Positions 1 to 9,149 of a stretch of 23,279 bases of DNA are shown piece after piece. Source of the DNA: Phycisphaerae bacterium (GTDB lineage: Bacteria; Planctomycetota; Phycisphaerae; UBA1845; UTPLA1); the NCBI GenBank assembly GCA_035542775.1, contig DATKKX010000078.1, positions 1 to 23,279 of the forward strand, written 5' to 3'. The first letter of the stretch is position 1. The number at the start of each line of letters is the position of its first letter. The notes beneath the pieces were generated by a model. That model did no database searches and was not told the DNA's origin. It was given only the letters and a program-made list of their open reading frames with translations. The position numbers and the translations under genes are program-made.

Positions 1-765
1 CTTTTTGGCAAATATGCGCTACAAAAACGCGTCCAGCATAGACCGGTAGAAAGCAGCAGGTTCGGCTTGCGCATTGCCCATGACAAGGTTCTGCAGGAGA
101 ACGAGGCGGAGAACCTCATGGTTGACCTCCACAAGCGGGCAGCGTGCGCCGATAGTAAGAATTGGGCAGCTGCGCAGCTCGACGAGCTGATTATCATGGC
201 GCTTTTGTCATCAGGATTGCGCAACTCAGAGTTTTGCTCCCTCGCCGTGGGTGATACGATCCTGGGTTCGGGGACGTCCGCGTTCGTGGTCCGGCGGCCT
301 GCCAGGCGAAAGCGGACGGTATTTGTACCCCGTAGAGTCAGTTCGCTGGTTGAGCAGTACGCAGGGACGGTCCGGCCGCGGTTCCTGCCAGAGGGTACGG
401 ACCCGGATGATCGCACAAAGCCGCTGCTGTTCAACGAGCACCGGCGGCCGTTCGACCGGACCGGGCTGTACCGGCGTGTAGTGAGGATCCTGACTGAGGC
501 CGGCTTGGGGGATCGTGCCAACGTGCAGCTTTTGCGCCATACATATGGATACTTGGCGTATCTGCGGACCGGCGGCAATCTGCTGTTCGTGCAGCGCCAG
601 TTGGGACACGCCCACCCCGCCACGACCTGTGTGTACGCGAAGCTGGTCGACGAATCATATTCGGATTTGGCGGAGCGCATTATGCCTGGCGGGCGTCCTA
701 TGGGGGCCATTGAGGGAAAGCCAGGCGGTAAGACGGTGCCGCGGTTTGATTGCGAGATTGACTGA
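1..765 (+). CDS. Tyrosine-type site-specific recombinase/integrase, catalytic C-terminal part (5' end lies outside the window)
   Basis: The 67..765 ORF has the phage-integrase catalytic-domain signature: box I '...[12 protein letters not shown]', box II '[39 protein letters not shown]' (XerC/XerD-like, nucleophile Tyr in 'VYAKL'). Frame 1 has no stop from nt 1 to 67, so the gene almost certainly continues upstream. Confidence 0.75.
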
Positions 766-854
766 TTCGCCGCAGGGGGCGCTCGGGAGGCGGCACCCCA
801 CCGGCGATGCCCTTGCATGGCGGCAGTGATGGAGATCTTTTGAGGCGACGAGGC

Positions 855-2285
<1,431 letters not shown>

Positions 2286-2304
2286 ACAGCAAAGGCTGGA
2301 ACTT

Positions 2305-2952
2305 ATGAGTAGTAGCACCACCAGCAACTTCGATCTGCGCAGCTATGTCTTTCTCGACAGTCTGCAACCGCAGTTTGCCTCCTTCCTGGCCACCGTGGCC
2401 CAAGGCTTCCTGCCGGTCGCGCATCAGGCGTCGCTCTTCGTCGAGATCTCGCCGGGCATCGAGATCAACCGCATCACCGACATCGCCCTCAAGTCCACGC
2501 GAGTGACGCCCGGCATGCAGATCGTCGAACGGCTGTACGGGATGCTCGAGATCCACTCCGACTCGCAGGCGGACATCCGCCAGGCCGGCCGGTCGATTCT
2601 CGCCGCCCTCGAGCTCAAGGAGGACGATCGCATCAAGCCCGTCGTCGTCTCCAGCCAGGTCATCCGTCGCATGGACGACTACCAGACCCAGCTCATCAAC
2701 CGCATGCGGCACGGCAACATGATCCTGCCCGGCCAGACGCTTTACATCATGGAATGCGTTCCGGCCGCTTACGCGGCCATCGCCGCCAATGAGGCCGAGA
2801 AGGCCGCGGAAATCAACATCCTGGAGGTCCGCACCTTCGGGAGTTTTGGGCGCCTTTACCTGGGTGGTGAAGAGCGCGATATCGACGTGGGCTACCGCGC
2901 CGCCGTGCAGGCCGCGCAGGCTGTCACAGGCCGCGTTGTGGAAAAGGTGTAG
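2305..2952 (+). CDS. BMC shell protein, tandem-domain (BMC-T; possibly permuted PduB/EutL-like)
   Basis: 215 aa with two BMC-like halves: '...[31 protein letters not shown]...' and '...[33 protein letters not shown]...' (D/E-x-A-x-K-[AS]-x-x-V pattern). 20 nt downstream of the fusion gene. Confidence 0.6.
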
Positions 2953-2999
2953 ACACAGTCAGACGATTAGTTCTGACACATAGAGGAGTGTATTCGTCA

Positions 3000-3311
3000 A
3001 TGGCAGAAGCGCTTGGAATGATTGAAACGAGGGGCTTTGCCGCCATGGTCGAGGCGTCCGACGCCATGGTCAAGGCCGCGAAAGTGGAACTGGTCTCCTA
3101 CGAGAAGATCGGCGGCGGTTACGTTACCGCCATCGTCCGCGGCGACGTCGCAGCCGTGAAAGCGGCCTGCGATGCCGGGCAGATCGCGGCTTCGCGGGTC
3201 GGCGAAATCGTGTCCGTGCACGTCATCGCCCGGCCGCACACGAACATCGATATCGTGTTGCCGCTGGGACGCGCCGAGCAGGCCGCGGCGGAGATGCAGC
3301 AGCGCAAGTAG
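3000..3311 (+). CDS. BMC-H shell protein (PduA/EutM/CcmK-like hexamer)
   Basis: Canonical '[60 protein letters not shown]'. ATG 3000 is preceded by AGAGGAG (2982-2988). The track ORF starts at GTG 2988. Confidence 0.9.
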
Positions 3312-3372
3312 GCGCGGCGCGAGCGGATCGCTGCCCTCGACGCCGCTGATGTACGTGCGAGAAAGGATTTTC

Positions 3373-3392
3373 GCGCGAGCGAACTTTCGCGC
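3373..3392 (+). promoter_or_regulatory. Intra-operon hairpin between the BMC-H and BMC-P genes
   Basis: GCGCGA (3373-3378) pairs with TCGCGC (3387-3392) around an 8-nt loop, inside a 166-nt gap that is unusually long for this otherwise tightly packed operon. Flanked by the direct repeat TTTCGCGC..AGCG ×2. Confidence 0.25.
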
Positions 3393-3477
3393 CAGCGGCG
3401 CACAGAGATGCCGGTGAGGGCACCGGCACCACTTGGGCGGCAGTTCACGTGGAAGGAAGACGCAGCGGAGCATCCAA

Positions 3478-3777
3478 ATGCTACTAGCGAAAGTCTTAGG
3501 CACGGTGGTGTCGACGAAGAAAGAGGAGAGCATGAAGGGCCTCCGCTTCATGCTCGTCCAGCCCGTCGACGCCGATGCGAAGCCCGCCGGCGGCCCGGTC
3601 GTGGCCGTGGACGCCGTTGGCTCCGGTCCCGGCGAGTACGTCCTCTACGCCACGGGCAGTTCCGCCCGCCAGACGGTCGCGACGGACAAGCGTCCTTGCG
3701 ACGCTGTCATCATGGCCATCGTGGACAACTGGGAGGTAGGCGGCGACATCAAGTACCGCAAGGGCAAAGGCGGCTAA
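3478..3777 (+). CDS. BMC-P vertex protein (EutN/CcmL/PduN family), paralog 1
   Basis: 'MLLAKVLGTVVSTKK...LRFMLVQPVD...PVVAVDAVGSGPGEYVLYATGSSAR...DAVIMAIVD' fits the EutN/CcmL fold pattern. ATG 3478 with GGAG 7 nt upstream. The track ORF starts at TTG 3433. Confidence 0.85.
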   Translation: MLLAKVLGTVVSTKKEESMKGLRFMLVQPVDADAKPAGGPVVAVDAVGSGPGEYVLYATGSSARQTVATDKRPCDAVIMAIVDNWEVGGDIKYRKGKGG

Positions 3778-3813
3778 CGACGGGACGTTACGCGATGATT
3801 CAGGAGCATGCCC

Positions 3814-5277
3814 ATGTCTCGGCTGAGTGATGAGCACGTGGATCAGATCGCCCGGCGGGTACTGCAGCGCCTCGGTCCGTCCTCGGTCCCACCTCCGGCC
3901 GCTCCGGGACGGCTGTCGACCGCCGAGGCCCGTGCTCTGGGCGACCCCGACAGGCCGGGCGTTTTCGACAAGCTCGATGACGCCATCGAGGCTGCAAGCC
4001 AGGCCTACCGCGCTCTCGATGCGATGTCGCTGGCGATCCGCGACAAGTTCATCGCCAACATCCGCGAGGTGATACTCGCCAACGCCGAGACCCTGGCCCG
4101 TGAAGCCCAACAGGAAACCGGCCTGGGCCGCTGGGAAGACAAACTGGTCAAGAACCGGCTCGTCGCCACCAAGACGCCGGGGACGGAAGATCTTGTGCCG
4201 CGGGCAGCCAGCGGCGACCACGGCCTGATGATCATGGAGCGGGCACCTTTCGGCGTCATCGGCTCGATCACACCCAGCACGAATCCGACTTCCACGATTA
4301 TCTGCAACACCATCGGCATGGTCGCGGCGGGAAATGCCGTCGTCTTCAATGTTCACCCCTCCGCCAAGCGAACGTCCGTCCACACGGTCGCCTTGCTCAA
4401 CGAAGCGATCATGAAGGCGGGTGGTCCCCGCAACATGATCACGACGCTCTCCGAGCCGACGATCGAATCCGCCCAGGCGATGATGAAGCACCCGGGCATC
4501 CGCCTGCTGGTCGTCACCGGCGGCCCCGGCGTCGTCAAGGTCGCCATGGGGAGCGGCAAGCGGGCCATCTGCGCAGGCCCCGGCAACCCGCCGGTCGTCG
4601 TCGATGAAACCGCCAACATCGATCAGGCCGCACGGGACATCGTTCGCGGCGGCTCCTTTGACAACAACGTCGTATGCATCGATGAGAAAGAGGTCCTGGT
4701 CGTCAGCTCCGTTGCTGACGCGTTGCTCAAGGCTCTGCCGAAGCATGGCGCCGTCGTCCTCAATGACACCCAAACCAGGCAGCTATCGAATGCCATCTTT
4801 GAAAAACGGCATGGCCCGCGCGAAGAGGGCGCTATGAAGAAGGAGTTCATCGGCAAGAACGCCTCCGTCATCCTCAGCGCCATCGGCATGAACGTCGGCA
4901 ATGACGTTCGCCTGGCGGTCGTCGATGTGCCGTTCAGCGACCCACTGGTCTGGACGGAACAGCTTATGCCGGTCATGCCGGTGACTCGCGTGTCCGACGT
5001 GGACGAGGCCATCGACGCGGCCGTCCTGGTCGAGGGCGGCCGACGGCACACGGCGGTCATGCACTCGCGCAACATTGACAAACTCAGCCGCATGGCCCGG
5101 CTGGCGAATTGCAGCATCTTCGTGAAAAACGGCCCCGCTTTCGCCGGTCTGGGTGAAGGGGGCGAGGGATATTCATCGTTTTCGATTGCCAGCCCAACAG
5201 GCGAAGGTCTCACCGGGCCGCGCAGCTTTTCGCGTGAACGCCGCTGCGTGCTGGTGGACCATTTTCGGATTGTGTGA
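3814..5277 (+). CDS. CoA-acylating aldehyde dehydrogenase (PduP/EutE family) with N-terminal encapsulation peptide
   Basis: N-terminus 'MSRLSDEHVDQIARRVLQRLG' followed by a Pro-rich linker. Catalytic motif 'SFDNNVVCIDEKEV' (PduP/EutE-type Cys). 'GAGPGNPP' CoA/NAD region. AGGAG sits 7 nt before ATG 3814; the alternative ATG is at 3808. Confidence 0.9.
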   Translation: MSRLSDEHVDQIARRVLQRLGPSSVPPPAAPGRLSTAEARALGDPDRPGVFDKLDDAIEAASQAYRALDAMSLAIRDKFIANIREVILANAETLAREAQQETGLGRWEDKLVKNRLVATKTPGTEDLVPRAASGDHGLMIMERAPFGVIGSITPSTNPTSTIICNTIGMVAAGNAVVFNVHPSAKRTSVHTVALLNEAIMKAGGPRNMITTLSEPTIESAQAMMKHPGIRLLVVTGGPGVVKVAMGSGKRAICAGPGNPPVVVDETANIDQAARDIVRGGSFDNNVVCIDEKEVLVVSSVADALLKALPKHGAVVLNDTQTRQLSNAIFEKRHGPREEGAMKKEFIGKNASVILSAIGMNVGNDVRLAVVDVPFSDPLVWTEQLMPVMPVTRVSDVDEAIDAAVLVEGGRRHTAVMHSRNIDKLSRMARLANCSIFVKNGPAFAGLGEGGEGYSSFSIASPTGEGLTGPRSFSRERRCVLVDHFRIV

Positions 5278-5849
5278 TGACACCGCCCGCCATTGCAGTA
5301 CTGGAGTTCGACAGCATCGCCGTCGGCACGCGCGCCGCCGACGCGATGGTCAAGAGAGCCCCCATCACCGTCTTCCGGATCGGCACGGTCCACCCCGGCA
5401 AGTTCATCGTGCTGGTCGGGGGGAGCGTGGCCGACGTGCAGGAATCCCGGACGGAAGGGCTACTCGTCGGCGGGGCATCGGTTCGCAGCGAGATTCTGTT
5501 GCCGGACGTCCATCAACAGGTCTTTGACGCCGTCAGCGGCAAGCGTCAGGCCAATACCGGCGACGCGCTCGGTGTTATCGAGACGACATCGATTCCGATC
5601 AACGTCGCCGCCGCGGACAAGGCGGTCAAGACCGCCGATGTCACCATCATCGAGATCCGTCTCGGTGACGGGCTCGGTGGAAAGGGCATCACGCATATGG
5701 CCGGTCTGCTCCATGAGGTGCAGGCTGCCGTCGAGGCCGGAGTGGCCGTCGCCACGCGCGTGGACGGCACCGTGTGCCAGAGCATTATCCCGATCCAGCA
5801 CGTTGAGCTGCGCGAGCAGGTGAACAAGGCCACGGAGTTCTACAAGTGA
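5277..5849 (+). CDS. BMC-T shell protein, two canonical tandem BMC domains (PduT-like size, ~190 aa)
   Basis: Domain 1 'IAVLEFDSIAVGTRAADAMVKRAPITVFRIGTVHPGKFIVLVGGSVADV'. Domain 2 'ALGVIETTSIPINVAAADKAVKTADVTIIEIRLGDGLGGKGITHMAG'. ATG 5277 overlaps the ALDH stop TGA (TGATG). GTG 5274 is the alternative start. Confidence 0.75.
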   Translation: MTPPAIAVLEFDSIAVGTRAADAMVKRAPITVFRIGTVHPGKFIVLVGGSVADVQESRTEGLLVGGASVRSEILLPDVHQQVFDAVSGKRQANTGDALGVIETTSIPINVAAADKAVKTADVTIIEIRLGDGLGGKGITHMAGLLHEVQAAVEAGVAVATRVDGTVCQSIIPIQHVELREQVNKATEFYK

Positions 5850-5889
5850 CCGCGCCGGCCGTCATCGTCGTCCAAGCGGAGTCATCGCG

Positions 5890-6174
5890 ATGCTTCTAGG
5901 GCGCGTCATCGGGACCGTTACTCCCTGCGCCGTGTACACCGGTCTGGCAGGCGTGCCTTTTCTGCTGGTTCAGCCGCTCGATCGCGTGGGAAAGGTTACC
6001 GGCAAGCCACTTGTCGCCGCGGATGCGACCAAGATGGCCGGCCCCGGCGAGCTGATCCTGTATGAAGGCGGGCGTGAGGCGGCGTTGGCCCTGGACCCCT
6101 GGTTTGTGCCCGTCGATCACACCATCGTCGGCATCGTCGATCATGTCGACCGTGAGGGATGGAGAAGAGCATGA
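5890..6174 (+). CDS. BMC-P vertex protein (EutN/CcmL family), paralog 2
   Basis: 'MLLGRVIGTVTPCAVYTGLAGVPFLLVQPLD...GELILYEGGREAAL...TIVGIVDHVD'. GGAG 9 nt upstream of the ATG. Confidence 0.8.
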   Translation: MLLGRVIGTVTPCAVYTGLAGVPFLLVQPLDRVGKVTGKPLVAADATKMAGPGELILYEGGREAALALDPWFVPVDHTIVGIVDHVDREGWRRA

Positions 6175-6446
6175 TCCTGTGCCGCGTCAAGGGCGAAGTG
6201 GTCGCCACCATCAAGCATCCGGCCTACAACAACTGGCGGATGCTGTTCCTGGATCGCATCGACCCCGGCGGCAAGGAGACCGGCGCATACCTCATCGCTC
6301 TCGATGCCGTCGACGCCGATCTTGGACAGACCGTCCTGGTCATCGATGAAGGCAATTCCGCCCGGCAGGTGGTCGGCGATCCGCAGGCCCCGATCCGCTC
6401 GGTCATCATCGGTATCGTCGATGAGATTGCCGTTACAGCATCGTGA
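6171..6446 (+). CDS. BMC-P vertex protein (EutN/CcmL family), paralog 3
   Basis: 'MILCRVKGEVVATIKHP...MLFLDRID...AYLIALDAVDADLGQTVLVIDEGNSAR...VIIGIVDEI'. ATG 6171 overlaps the stop of paralog 2 (ATGA), with GGAG at 6162-6165. Upstream ATG 6159 is the alternative start. Confidence 0.8.
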   Translation: MILCRVKGEVVATIKHPAYNNWRMLFLDRIDPGGKETGAYLIALDAVDADLGQTVLVIDEGNSARQVVGDPQAPIRSVIIGIVDEIAVTAS

Positions 6447-6468
6447 CGTCTCGAGGTCACGTTCGACT

Positions 6469-8028
6469 ATGACAGCTCGCGATCTTGTCATTGGCGTAGA
6501 TAGCGGCACACAGTCCACCAAAGTCGTGCTGGTCGACGGCGAAACCGGCGAGGTGGTGGCCGCGGCGAGCGTTCCGCACCGACTGATCGAAGGCCTGCCG
6601 CCCGGGCACCTGGAACAGCGTGCCGAGGACTGGTTCACGGCCTTGGAAGAGGCACTCCAGGCGGCCCTCGCTGATCATTCAGCGGATCCGAAGCATATCC
6701 GTGCCATTGGCGTATCCGGCCAACAGCATGGACTGGTTGCGCTGGACGCCGACGGCCGAGTGATCCGGCCGGCCAAGCTCTGGTGCGACACGTCAACCGC
6801 AAAGCAATGCGAAGAGATCATCGCCCGTGTCGGCGGCCTGGCCCGCTACATAGAGCTCACCGGTAACGGCCTGCCGCCCGGGTTCACAGCATCCAAGCTC
6901 GCCTGGCTGAAAGAGCGTGAGCCGGCGAACTACGCCAGGCTGCGAACCGTATTGCTGCCGCACGACTATCTGAACTACCGGTTGACGGGCCTGTGCCGGA
7001 TGGAGCCCGGGGACGCATCGGGCACGGCGCTGCTCGATGTCCGCCGCCGAACGTGGTGCACCGAAGTCATTGCCGCAATCGACGGCGCGCTCGTCGAAAA
7101 GCTTCCGTCATTGATGGCCAACGATCAGCCTTGCGGAATGCTGAGAAAGGAACTAGCCGACAAATGGGGTCTGCCCGGCGACGTTCTGGTCGCGTCCGGC
7201 GGTGGGGACAACATGATGTCCGCCATCGGAACCGGCAACGTGACCGACGGCGTCGTCACGGTCAGCCTGGGCACGTCGGGCACGATCTTTGCCTATTCAT
7301 CCTCACCGATCGTGGACCCGTTGGGCGAAATCGCGGCGTTTTGTGACAGCACCGGTGCGTGGTTGCCACTGATTTGTACCATGAACGTTACCGTGGCCAC
7401 CGAGCTCACCAAGGCTCTATTCGGTTTGAACAATGAGCAGCTCGACAGCGCCGCCGCCCGTGTGCCAGTCGGCAGCGCTGGTCTCATGTTGCTGCCCTAC
7501 TTTGAAGGTGAACGCACACCCAACGTGCCCAACGGCACGGGCGTATGGTTCGGAGCCAACCGCCGAACCCACACCCCGGCCCACTTTGCGCGGGCAGCGA
7601 TGGAGGGCGCGACATTGGGCCTGAACTACGGCCTGAGACGCTTGCGAGAGTTGGGAGTCGCGGACGAAGAGATCCGCCTGACCGGCGGCGGCGCCAACAG
7701 TGCCGCCTGGCGGCGGATCGCGGCTGACGTATTCAACCGACCGGTCGTCTGCCTCGCCCAGACCGAGGCCGCGGCGTTCGGTGCGGCGATGCAAGCGGCA
7801 TGGTGCTGGCAGAAACAGCGCCTGCCGCAACTGACTATCAGCCGGCTCGCCGAGCGATGGATAGTACCGCTGGAGCAGACGCGAGTGCTCCCCAATCCGC
7901 GAAACGCGGAGCGCTATGCTCGGTTGCAGCGGCTGCACGATCGGCTTTCTATTGCCTTGCGTGAGTCGTTCGATATGCATCGCGAGATCGCGTTGGAGGG
8001 TTTTGAGGGTGGGAGGGCAGGACTATGA
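6469..8028 (+). CDS. xylB: FGGY-family carbohydrate kinase, xylulokinase-like
   Basis: 'LVIGVDSGTQSTKVVLVDGETGEVVAAAS', 'IRAIGVSGQQHGLVALDADGRVIRPAKLWCD', 'GFTASKLAWLKEREPANYARLRTVLLPHDYLNYRLTG', 'GGGDNMMSAIGTG', 'LPYFEGERTP' align along E. coli XylB. ATG 6469 lies 22 nt after BMC-P3. The track ORF start at 6304 is upstream read-through. Confidence 0.85.
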   Translation: MTARDLVIGVDSGTQSTKVVLVDGETGEVVAAASVPHRLIEGLPPGHLEQRAEDWFTALEEALQAALADHSADPKHIRAIGVSGQQHGLVALDADGRVIRPAKLWCDTSTAKQCEEIIARVGGLARYIELTGNGLPPGFTASKLAWLKEREPANYARLRTVLLPHDYLNYRLTGLCRMEPGDASGTALLDVRRRTWCTEVIAAIDGALVEKLPSLMANDQPCGMLRKELADKWGLPGDVLVASGGGDNMMSAIGTGNVTDGVVTVSLGTSGTIFAYSSSPIVDPLGEIAAFCDSTGAWLPLICTMNVTVATELTKALFGLNNEQLDSAAARVPVGSAGLMLLPYFEGERTPNVPNGTGVWFGANRRTHTPAHFARAAMEGATLGLNYGLRRLRELGVADEEIRLTGGGANSAAWRRIAADVFNRPVVCLAQTEAAAFGAAMQAAWCWQKQRLPQLTISRLAERWIVPLEQTRVLPNPRNAERYARLQRLHDRLSIALRESFDMHREIALEGFEGGRAGL

Positions 8029-9149
8029 CGTACGTGCTGTGCGATCTTCGTTATCAGAAAGTCAGGCGAACCCGAGCCGAGTTGCTCAACCATTTGAAGC
8101 ACTTCCGGCTCAAGCCGCGCATTTCCGTGGGCATCTGGTACTTCACGCCCGGCGGCGGACGCTTTCACGATCACTATGTACCGCCCGCCGGCATCGCCGA
8201 GCGCCTGGAGATGGCGGCGGAGCTGGCCCCACTCGGCGTCAGCGGGATTGAGGCCCACTATCCCGCGGAAGTGAACGAAGAGAATCTGCATCTGTACAAG
8301 AAGCTGGAGGAACAGGCCGGCATCCGTCTGGCCGCAATTCCATTCTCCCATTTCTTCGACAAGGATTTCGAGTTCGGCAGCCTGTCCAGCCCGTACCCCG
8401 CGGTCCGCCGCAAAGCCGTCGAGATAGCCATTGGCGGCCTGAAGCTTGTTCGAGACGCCGGAGCTTCGGTGGCGATCTCCTGGCCGGGCATCGACGGCTA
8501 CACCTACTCTTTGGGCACGGTATTCCCGTGGATGTGGGATCGATTCGAAGGAGCGTTGGCGGAGGCCATGGACGAGGTTCCCGGCGTGCGGGTCGCCATC
8601 GAGCCGAAGCCTTATGAGCCGGCCCCAAACAACATCTATCGCACGACTGCCGAGGGCATCCTCGCGGCACAGCGGATCGAGGCCCGGCTGACCAACGTCG
8701 TCAACCGCAAACTCCTTGACGCGGGACACGCCCTCGTCGGCTTGAATCCCGAGATCGGGCACGTCCGCATGGGGGGGGAGGATTGCGCCGCCGTGTTCAG
8801 CGTGGTCGGAGTCGAGGGGCGGCTGGCACATACGCACTGGAACTCGCAGCCACTCGGCAACTACGACCAGGATCTGAATATCGGAGTAGTCGACTGGCAG
8901 CAAGCGGAGGCCCTGCTGTTTGCCCTTTGGCAAATGGGCTACGCCGAGTGGTTTGGAATCGACATCAATCCCGAGCGAATACCGGTGCGCAAGGCGGTCG
9001 AAATCAATGTGACCGTCTTGCGGATTCTGCAGGAGCGGATTGAGGTGCTGCCCGTGGAGAGGATTCTGGATTGCGCTGAGGATCCGGCCGCTCATCGTGG
9101 CGAACTCGAGATGATCCTGGCGGAGACCTTTCGCCGCCGGCCGTTGTGA
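8025..9149 (+). CDS. Xylose-isomerase-family (class I XylA-like TIM barrel) sugar isomerase, divergent
   Basis: 'VAIEPKPYEP' (XylA IEPKPxEP motif), 'GLNPEIGHVRMGG' (NPEVGH metal site) and 'GNYDQDLNIG' (DQD metal ligands) are present. Length 374 aa fits a class I XylA. ATG overlaps the kinase stop (ATGA) with GGGAGGG 7 nt upstream. Confidence 0.7.
   Translation: MTYVLCDLRYQKVRRTRAELLNHLKHFRLKPRISVGIWYFTPGGGRFHDHYVPPAGIAERLEMAAELAPLGVSGIEAHYPAEVNEENLHLYKKLEEQAGIRLAAIPFSHFFDKDFEFGSLSSPYPAVRRKAVEIAIGGLKLVRDAGASVAISWPGIDGYTYSLGTVFPWMWDRFEGALAEAMDEVPGVRVAIEPKPYEPAPNNIYRTTAEGILAAQRIEARLTNVVNRKLLDAGHALVGLNPEIGHVRMGGEDCAAVFSVVGVEGRLAHTHWNSQPLGNYDQDLNIGVVDWQQAEALLFALWQMGYAEWFGIDINPERIPVRKAVEINVTVLRILQERIEVLPVERILDCAEDPAAHRGELEMILAETFRRRPL

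Follow-up and report, generated by a model that had tools for sequence, protein, structure and literature searches.

A Phycisphaerae microcompartment locus of the SPU3 type without phosphotransacylase or alcohol dehydrogenase genes

The bacterial microcompartment (BMC) locus carried by contig DATKKX010000078.1 of a Phycisphaerae bacterium encodes a CoA-acylating aldehyde dehydrogenase (AldDH) together with a full set of shell proteins, and no phosphotransacylase (PTAC), alcohol dehydrogenase (ADH) or acetate kinase accompanies them. The window, meaning the whole stretch of DNA analyzed, is 23,279 bp long with 60–66% G+C and represents one entire contig of a metagenome-assembled genome (MAG) at NCBI, so that the record extends no farther upstream. 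Judged by its gene content and sequence features against the published descriptions, the locus is a textbook representative of SPU3, one of the sugar-phosphate-utilizing (SPU) types of BMC, and the missing PTAC and ADH partners are no anomaly but the documented normal make-up of that type, because published SPU3 loci lack them as well. The reading favored here, to which a probability of roughly 0.7 is assigned, is that of a complete SPU3-type metabolosome operon whose cofactors would pass to and from the cytosol, most plausibly by way of the pore of its double-stacking trimer tile, BMC-Tdp.

Pfam scans of the 22 predicted genes and candidate open reading frames (ORFs) of the window, together with 7 further ORFs in or across gaps, found no PTAC, PTA_PTB, Acetate_kinase, Fe-ADH, Zn-ADH or Complex1_51K domain. 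A tblastn search of all six frames with six probe sequences (PduL, AckA, FucO, Pta, AdhP and PduS, each placed by Pfam in its family) returned nothing better than E = 0.31 (23.5 bits), with the best match of the PduS probe likewise at only E 0.31. The original prediction, made from the DNA letters alone, that no phosphotransacylase, ADH or acetate kinase is present in the window is thus borne out. Its premise that catabolic BMCs normally package PTAC and ADH along with the AldDH follows the PDU and EUT paradigm and is too broad, since SPU3 has been published without these enzymes. Co-encoded PTAC and ADH, the mark of a canonical “complete-core” metabolosome, are found neither in the window nor in its seven closest relatives.

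The published description of SPU3 matches the locus in detail. Supplementary Data 2 of Sutter 2021 (PMC8217296) gives AldDh, pfam01791 and pfam02502 as the SPU3 enzymes; the latter two are fused in some loci, with pfam02502 N-terminal and a sequence resembling an encapsulation peptide (EP) between the domains, and the AldDh bears an N-terminal EP. According to the same study, the SPU3 shell comprises one BMC-H, a triplet of BMC-P proteins, a CcmP-like BMC-Tdp and a BMC-Ts that has neither a co-occurring PduS homologue nor a pore cysteine, and Planctomycetes are among the host phyla. The fusion, the EP of the AldDH, the EP-like helix between the fused domains, the shell set, a BMC-Ts without PduS or pore cysteine and the absence of PTAC are all found in the window. 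SPU2, SPU5 and SPU6 have likewise been published as lacking PTAC (Sutter 2021, PMC8217296; Dwyer 2024, PMC11585597). Nearly every SPU1, SPU4 or SPU7 locus has PTAC, and some SPU2, SPU4 and SPU6 loci have ADH; loci lacking PTAC typically encode BMC-Tdp, through whose pore acetyl-CoA has been proposed to exit (Dwyer, Sutter and Kerfeld 2024, PMC11585597).

The genes from 67 to 9149 form one co-directional block by Pfam, NCBIfam and gene calls, and their tight spacing and start-stop overlaps point to an operon. The eight genes of the SPU3 set and the targeting elements within them are as follows.

855..2285, + strand: RpiB-DERA fusion, the SPU signature enzyme (Pfam LacAB_rpiB, E 2.6e-54; DeoC, E 2.3e-19)
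1374..1430, + strand: internal amphipathic helix between the two domains of the fusion, conserved in orthologues
2305..2952, + strand: BMC-Tdp, CcmP-like double-stacking trimer tile with a large gated pore (NCBIfam CcmP, 328 bits; Pfam CsoS1D_N)
3000..3311, + strand: BMC-H hexamer shell protein (Pfam BMC, E 7.3e-29)
3478..3777, + strand: BMC-P pentamer protein, first of three (Pfam EutN_CcmL, E 3.4e-31)
3814..5277, + strand: CoA-acylating AldDH of the EutE/PduP type (Pfam Aldedh, E 9.4e-38; NCBIfam NF011927)
3823..3873, + strand: predicted encapsulation-peptide helix of the AldDH, residues 4–20, LSDEHVDQIARRVLQRL (conservation, hydrophobic moment, AlphaFold2 helix 6–20)
3874..3957, + strand: flexible Pro/Ala-rich linker of the AldDH, residues 21–48 (high entropy, indels, variable length; pLDDT below 50 at 21–41)
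5277..5849, + strand: BMC-Ts, PduT-like tandem-domain trimer without a pore cysteine (two Pfam BMC domains, E 1.1e-30)
5890..6174, + strand: BMC-P pentamer protein, second of three (Pfam EutN_CcmL, E 3.5e-17)
6171..6446, + strand: BMC-P pentamer protein, third of three (Pfam EutN_CcmL, E 6.6e-23)

The signature enzyme carries both of its domains in a single ORF, with LacAB_rpiB at residues 27–164 and DeoC at residues 267–474 by Pfam. Against the NCBIfam deoC model TIGR00126 it scores 274 bits (cut-off 117), and the DERA active-site residues D102, K167 and K201 (E. coli numbering) are all kept, as D336, K400 and K430. The RpiB domain, aligned with E. coli RpiB and described in its numbering, has Asp73 at the position of the catalytic Cys66 and Ala for Thr68, while His99 is retained as His106 and the remaining mapped residues (D9, H10, H99, N100, R133 and R137) are kept. 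Aspartate replaces the catalytic cysteine in all SPU RPIs, and an SPU6 RpiB homologue was found to be inactive on ribose-5-phosphate (Dwyer 2024, PMC11585597). The helix that joins the two domains is conserved in seven orthologues and in an alignment of 29 sequences, and is probably an internal encapsulation peptide. A Cys-rich motif of the form C-x3/4-C-x2-C-x2-C, which may be a metal site, also occurs past this helix and ahead of the DERA domain in about 14 of the 29 related fusions; the copy in the window, at 1470-1499 (residues 206–215), has three of the four cysteines, the fourth being Arg.

For the AldDH, both the enzyme type and the start assigned in the gene map are well defined. It scores 654 bits against NF011927, the NCBIfam model of EutE-type aldehyde dehydrogenases (cut-off 403), and its catalytic Cys288 (NNVVCIDEKE) is invariant among 60 homologues. 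The start at 3814, as given in the original prediction, is right: orthologues open with M-[SA]-R-L, and a Shine-Dalgarno-like AGGAG lies 7 nt upstream. Residues 4–20 are conserved across the 60 homologues, in which A13 is invariant and L4 and I12 reach at least 90%. With a hydrophobic moment of 0.73 they rank second among 473 windows of the protein (mean 0.28, standard deviation 0.14). The Pro/Ala/Gly linker that follows is rich in indels and of high entropy, so that the whole extension ranges from 37 to 62 aa among homologues, and an AlphaFold2 model has a helix at 6–20, pLDDT below 50 at 21–41 and a folded domain from about residue 49. Conservation, amphipathicity, variable linker and modeled helix together uphold the earlier assignment of an N-terminal encapsulation peptide; the N-terminus is as expected for such a peptide, which would direct the enzyme into the shell.

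The shell has two trimeric tiles. BMC-Tdp aligns over its full length with CcmP (PDB 4HT5; E 3.6e-79), keeps the Glu-Arg gate motif ERLYG at residue 75, and matches the Haliangium ochraceum (HO) BMC-T2 and BMC-T3 proteins (PDB 5V74, 5V76) at E values near 1e-70. BMC-Ts scores 91 bits against the NCBIfam eut_PduT model, under its cut-off. Its His39 (TVHPGK) aligns to the Fe-S-binding Cys38 of PduT, and the position is His in five of six orthologues; three such His residues would line the axis of the trimer.

How constant this gene set is can be seen from its relatives. More than 120 homologues of the fusion share at least 60% identity with it, and those with a named source are mostly from MAGs of Phycisphaerae or Phycisphaerales. 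Seven relatives, with fusions 60–81% identical, were read with 10-kb flanks on each side. The order fusion, Tdp, H, P, AldDH, Ts, P, P is whole in six of these, and PF06130, PF01515, PF00871, PF00465 and PF01512 are all missing within 10 kb on either side in all seven. The seventh (locus L005, in the complete Phycisphaerales MAG genome CP070691.1) shows an SPU3 locus in decay, with its AldDH cut to 328 aa at 12948-13933 and Ts and two BMC-P genes missing. Another complete Phycisphaerales genome, CP070685.1, has the block in intact form.

A wider comparison covered 87 RpiB/DERA loci (1.35 Mb, 4,292 ORFs), made up of the 80 further loci listed in a scan of a genome collection, the loci of six relatives and the window itself; the scanned loci came from many phyla, mostly outside the Planctomycetes, and added no close relatives. 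Across these loci the PduL (PTAC) and Pta probes matched no ORF. The AckA, Fe-ADH, Zn-ADH and PduS probes matched one each, in loci L058, L025, L021 and L039, respectively. BMC-Tdp, on the other hand, is present in all 22 loci with both fusion and AldDH, and in 45 of the 47 with AldDH. Clustering of the 4,292 ORFs, with Pfam annotation of 20 recurrent clusters, likewise yielded no recycling enzyme, the recurrent neighbors including GntR/UTRA and SorC-type regulators, kinases, a phosphoribosyltransferase, an EutJ-like protein and PNP. The AckA match belongs to a different setting: L058, from Terriglobia, has an RpiB-DERA fusion at 9842-11491 whose 10-kb surroundings contain neither shell genes nor an AldDH, and the acetate kinase gene (14203-15435) lies 2.7 kb downstream of it. 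The fusion therefore also occurs outside BMC loci.

The observed gene content and order, catalytic residues, EP features, conserved enzyme absence and co-occurrence of Tdp allow a scheme for the working of the organelle to be proposed. The fusion and the AldDH would each be targeted to the interior by an amphipathic helix of its own. Deoxyribose-5-phosphate, the presumed substrate, would enter the shell, where the DERA domain would yield acetaldehyde and the co-packaged AldDH would turn this into acetyl-CoA and NADH. With no internal PTAC, ADH or PduS-PduT pair, CoA and acetyl-CoA as well as NAD+ and NADH must then cross the shell, most plausibly by the large gated pore of the CcmP-like Tdp, through which sugar phosphates have also been proposed to pass, and the acetyl-CoA and NADH would be consumed by ordinary cytosolic metabolism. 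That cofactors might be recycled differently here, through shell pores, had been among the suggestions of the original prediction and is essentially a published hypothesis; what needs correction is the conduit, for which the CcmP-like Tdp is the likely tile rather than the PduT-like Ts, with its His for Cys and no PduS partner. Salmonella pduQ mutants reportedly still grow on 1,2-propanediol, a result attributed to Cheng and colleagues in 2012 (Cheng et al. 2012), which would imply some passage of NAD(H) even through PDU shells and makes an exchange model reasonable.

Several points weigh against this scheme. No SPU3 organelle is known to have been the subject of an experiment, and no Tdp pore is known to let cofactors through. 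The RpiB domain is without an assigned role, given the exchange of its catalytic Cys for Asp and the inactivity of the SPU6 homologue on ribose-5-phosphate. The xylulokinase and isomerase genes appended to the block (see below) hint at a substrate besides or instead of deoxyribose-5-phosphate. Single ADH genes also adjoin SPU3-like loci in two other phyla, a Zn-ADH directly upstream of the fusion in Elusimicrobia (L021, 949-2025) and an Fe-ADH 1.6 kb upstream in Verrucomicrobiota (L025, 7221-8423), and some lineages may accordingly need NAD+ recycling.

A further point, that a single contig of a MAG was read and an EP-tagged PduL, ADH or PduS could lie at a distance, leads to the alternative that survives best, also raised in the original prediction, in which a satellite locus away from the block would supply EP-bearing recycling enzymes for packaging into this shell. 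Several BMC types have satellite loci, and SPU7 keeps its DERA at one, but they are uncommon for SPU3 (Sutter 2021, PMC8217296), and SPU BMCs rarely co-occur with BMCs of other types (Dwyer 2024, PMC11585597). The ADH genes beside the L021 and L025 blocks lend the idea some support. Against it, Tdp accompanies nearly every AldDH-bearing locus of the comparison and PTAC none, a pattern that speaks for a difference in design rather than for scattered genes, and a satellite locus is considered unlikely.

A second alternative places an unrecognized recycling chemistry within the block itself, in the altered RpiB domain, in a redox or metal centre formed by the Cys-rich insert of the fusion, or in the His-lined Ts pore. 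The replacement of Cys66 by Asp73 with most other mapped residues kept, the inactivity of the SPU6 homologue on ribose-5-phosphate, a Cys motif shared by roughly half of the Phycisphaerae-type fusions and the predominance of His at the Ts pore position all leave room for such chemistry. The motif is, however, missing or incomplete in many orthologues, the window with its three cysteines included, so it is not essential. Pfam and NCBIfam detected no domain that binds NAD or flavin in any protein of the block, and no thioesterase or transferase domain was found. This explanation is accordingly rated as improbable, yet if true it would constitute a new solution to the turnover of NAD+ and CoA in metabolosomes.

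The third alternative, raised in the original prediction, concerns the gene at the left end of the window, which belongs to the Phage_integrase family: a mobile-element insertion would have split the locus and left PduL, ADH and AckA beyond it. This gene and the two that follow the SPU3 set complete the block.

67..765, + strand: short tyrosine recombinase (“integrase”), 232 aa, catalytic domain only (Pfam Phage_integrase, E 5.5e-16)
6469..8028, + strand: xylulokinase of the FGGY family, accessory (NCBIfam XylB TIGR01312, 538 bits, cut-off 380)
8025..9149, + strand: xylose-isomerase-like TIM-barrel sugar isomerase, accessory (Pfam AP_endonuc_2, E 4.2e-12; weak XylA match, 68 bits)

In favor of a split locus, only 66 nt of contig precede the recombinase, and another assembly stops at that very base. 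The two records, the NCBI MAG contig and ENA k141_113522, are independent of each other, and their shared first base suggests that assembly breaks reproducibly there, owing to a repeat, a strain variant or a rearrangement. In addition, the gene upstream of the recombinase in locus L003, the closest relative, encodes triosephosphate isomerase, an enzyme associated with SPU loci of other subtypes (Dwyer 2024, PMC11585597).

The recombinase itself tells a different story. Its Pfam match spans profile positions 2–169 of 172, the catalytic R, K, R, H and Y are retained (the first His of HxxR is Gln), and the closest solved structure is the C-terminal domain of XerA (PDB 5HXY). In the four closest loci, L003, L004, L005 and L006, it heads the block directly upstream of the fusion, with a C-terminal half almost identical between loci. 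In the window, L003, L005 and L006, 10–119 nt lie between its stop and the called start of the fusion. The orthologues in L003 (9293-9991), L005 (9235-9882) and L006 (9288-9986) start at the codon equivalent to position 67 of the window and are 232 aa long (215 aa as called in L005). In L003 the gap to the preceding gene is 130 nt, so no N-terminal domain is missing from the protein. Genes farther upstream vary by lineage, being triosephosphate isomerase, a LacI regulator or unknowns, and include no PTAC, ADH or AckA within 10 kb; the more distant relatives without the recombinase (L007–L009) are likewise without partner genes. A search for relatives of the recombinase gave 788, of which the best 120 are all 186–287 aa (most 211–267) with PF00589 only, those with named sources being from Planctomycetota, and three homologues at 55–58% identity have truA or acyl-carrier-protein genes as neighbors and no BMC genes close by. 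Because it is complete, conserved in position and belongs to a family found elsewhere in housekeeping contexts, the recombinase is, as far as its sequence relationships go, a lineage-typical short member of a Planctomycetota-wide family and not the edge of an inserted element.

Other roles for the recombinase were also considered. The homologues in housekeeping contexts rule out a BMC-specific recombinase. An integrase of a prophage or integrative element is disfavored by the catalytic-domain-only architecture, by the lack of a tRNA gene in the window and by the lack of att-like repeats in L003, L005 and L006, and for a genomic island, direct-repeat scans of the interval from tRNA to block in the same three loci gave nothing tRNA-derived. 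Scans for the inverted repeats of an invertible promoter in the window (where they cover just the 66 nt upstream of the recombinase), L003, L005 and L006 gave only weak, non-homologous pairs, and the aligned upstream regions have little conservation. Transfer RNA genes (Arg, Lys or Met) do occur 1.2–5 kb upstream on the opposite strand in L003 (8008-8083), L005 (4154-4226) and L006 (6161-6235), while 13 other SPU loci have none in their 10–21 kb.

A locus divided by an insertion is thus very improbable, the more so as published SPU3 loci lack enzymes of the PTAC, ADH and AckA types in the first place, and the original suggestion that the partner genes lie upstream of the integrase is not upheld. 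Least plausible of all is a decaying remnant with no functional organelle, its missing enzymes lost, for which the degenerate L005 sets a precedent, since all eight SPU3 genes of the window are intact, operon-like in their spacing and preserved in their catalytic residues, and the block recurs in many genomes across phyla at 60–90% protein identity.

The accessory genes at the other end of the block follow it closely, the xylulokinase gene beginning 22 nt past the last BMC-P gene and the start of the isomerase gene overlapping the stop of xylB. No homologue of either was found in the 86 other loci compared, and the pair may represent a lineage-specific feed of pentose into the organelle or mere operon neighbors. 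Their presence in an SPU3 operon is a feature absent from the cited papers, and a recombinase heading the block goes unmentioned in Axen 2014, the supplementary files of Sutter 2021 (PMC8217296) and Dwyer 2024 (PMC11585597). Neither the recombinase nor the xylulokinase/isomerase pair changes the assignment to SPU3.

The remaining genes of the window are unrelated to the block and encode a secreted dockerin protein, an SPFH protein, an ABC exporter, an M16 peptidase, a desaturase and a lactate permease. The first of these (9356-10390) has an N-terminus resembling a signal peptide, a C-terminal dockerin (E 0.004) and an H-x3-D-x-H-x-P-L-H motif resembling S1/P1 nucleases, an identity whose matches are below significance (Pfam, E 0.052; PDB ENDO2, E 0.41). 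If it is a nuclease, the protein would suit the proposal that SPU organelles serve to scavenge DNA. Among the compared loci, the block of L009 is flanked by an Exo_endo_phos nuclease/phosphatase (3422-4474) and a PNP_UDP_1 nucleoside phosphorylase (10265-11101), and phosphoribosyltransferase ORFs lie near 11 of the 87 loci (for example, L029 4523-5092). Such recurring nucleotide-salvage neighbors fit a deoxynucleoside origin of the substrate.

How NAD+ and CoA are supplied in metabolosomes without PTAC and ADH is a recognized question already posed in the literature, and the window is one more SPU3 locus whose missing enzymes had been catalogued. What the present analysis adds is the removal of the mobile-element explanation, an eight-gene block that is intact and without nearby recycling genes in six of seven Phycisphaerae relatives, and the joint pattern of PTAC absence and Tdp presence in 45 of 47 AldDH-bearing loci. 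With two enzyme polypeptides and six shell genes, the Phycisphaerae version of SPU3 is compact and would make a good minimal system for the passage of dinucleotides and CoA esters through a gated Tdp.

Set beside known systems, the locus shares with published SPU3 loci (PMC8217296, PMC11585597) the same enzymes, targeting helices, shell set, PTAC absence and Planctomycetes host, and differs from them in the short tyrosine recombinase gene that heads the block in its subclade and in the appended xylulokinase and xylose-isomerase-like genes. That recombinase resembles XerA (PDB 5HXY), XerC and XerD in its catalytic-domain fold and its R, K, R, H and Y residues, and FimB/FimE-type short invertases in its length of about 230 aa. 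Unlike the Xer proteins it has no N-terminal core-binding domain, and the scans of the window, L003, L005 and L006 gave no convincing inverted repeats around it; its scores fall far under every NCBIfam cut-off (76 bits versus 220 for XerA), with E values of about 0.006 for the invertase models. SPU1, SPU4 and SPU7, like PDU and EUT, pair an aldehyde-generating signature enzyme with an EP-tagged AldDH in a shell of BMC-H, BMC-P and BMC-T proteins, just as the window does, but recycle CoA and NAD+ internally with a PduL-type PTAC and often ADH or PduS-PduT. The SPU1, SPU4 and SPU7 loci do so without BMC-Tdp (Dwyer 2024, PMC11585597), whereas the window has the opposite arrangement, with Tdp present and the recycling enzymes absent. 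The nearest counterparts of that Tdp are CcmP of the beta-carboxysome and HO BMC-T2 and BMC-T3, with which it aligns over its full length and shares the Glu-Arg gating motif, and it differs from them in belonging to a catabolic, aldehyde-oxidizing organelle.

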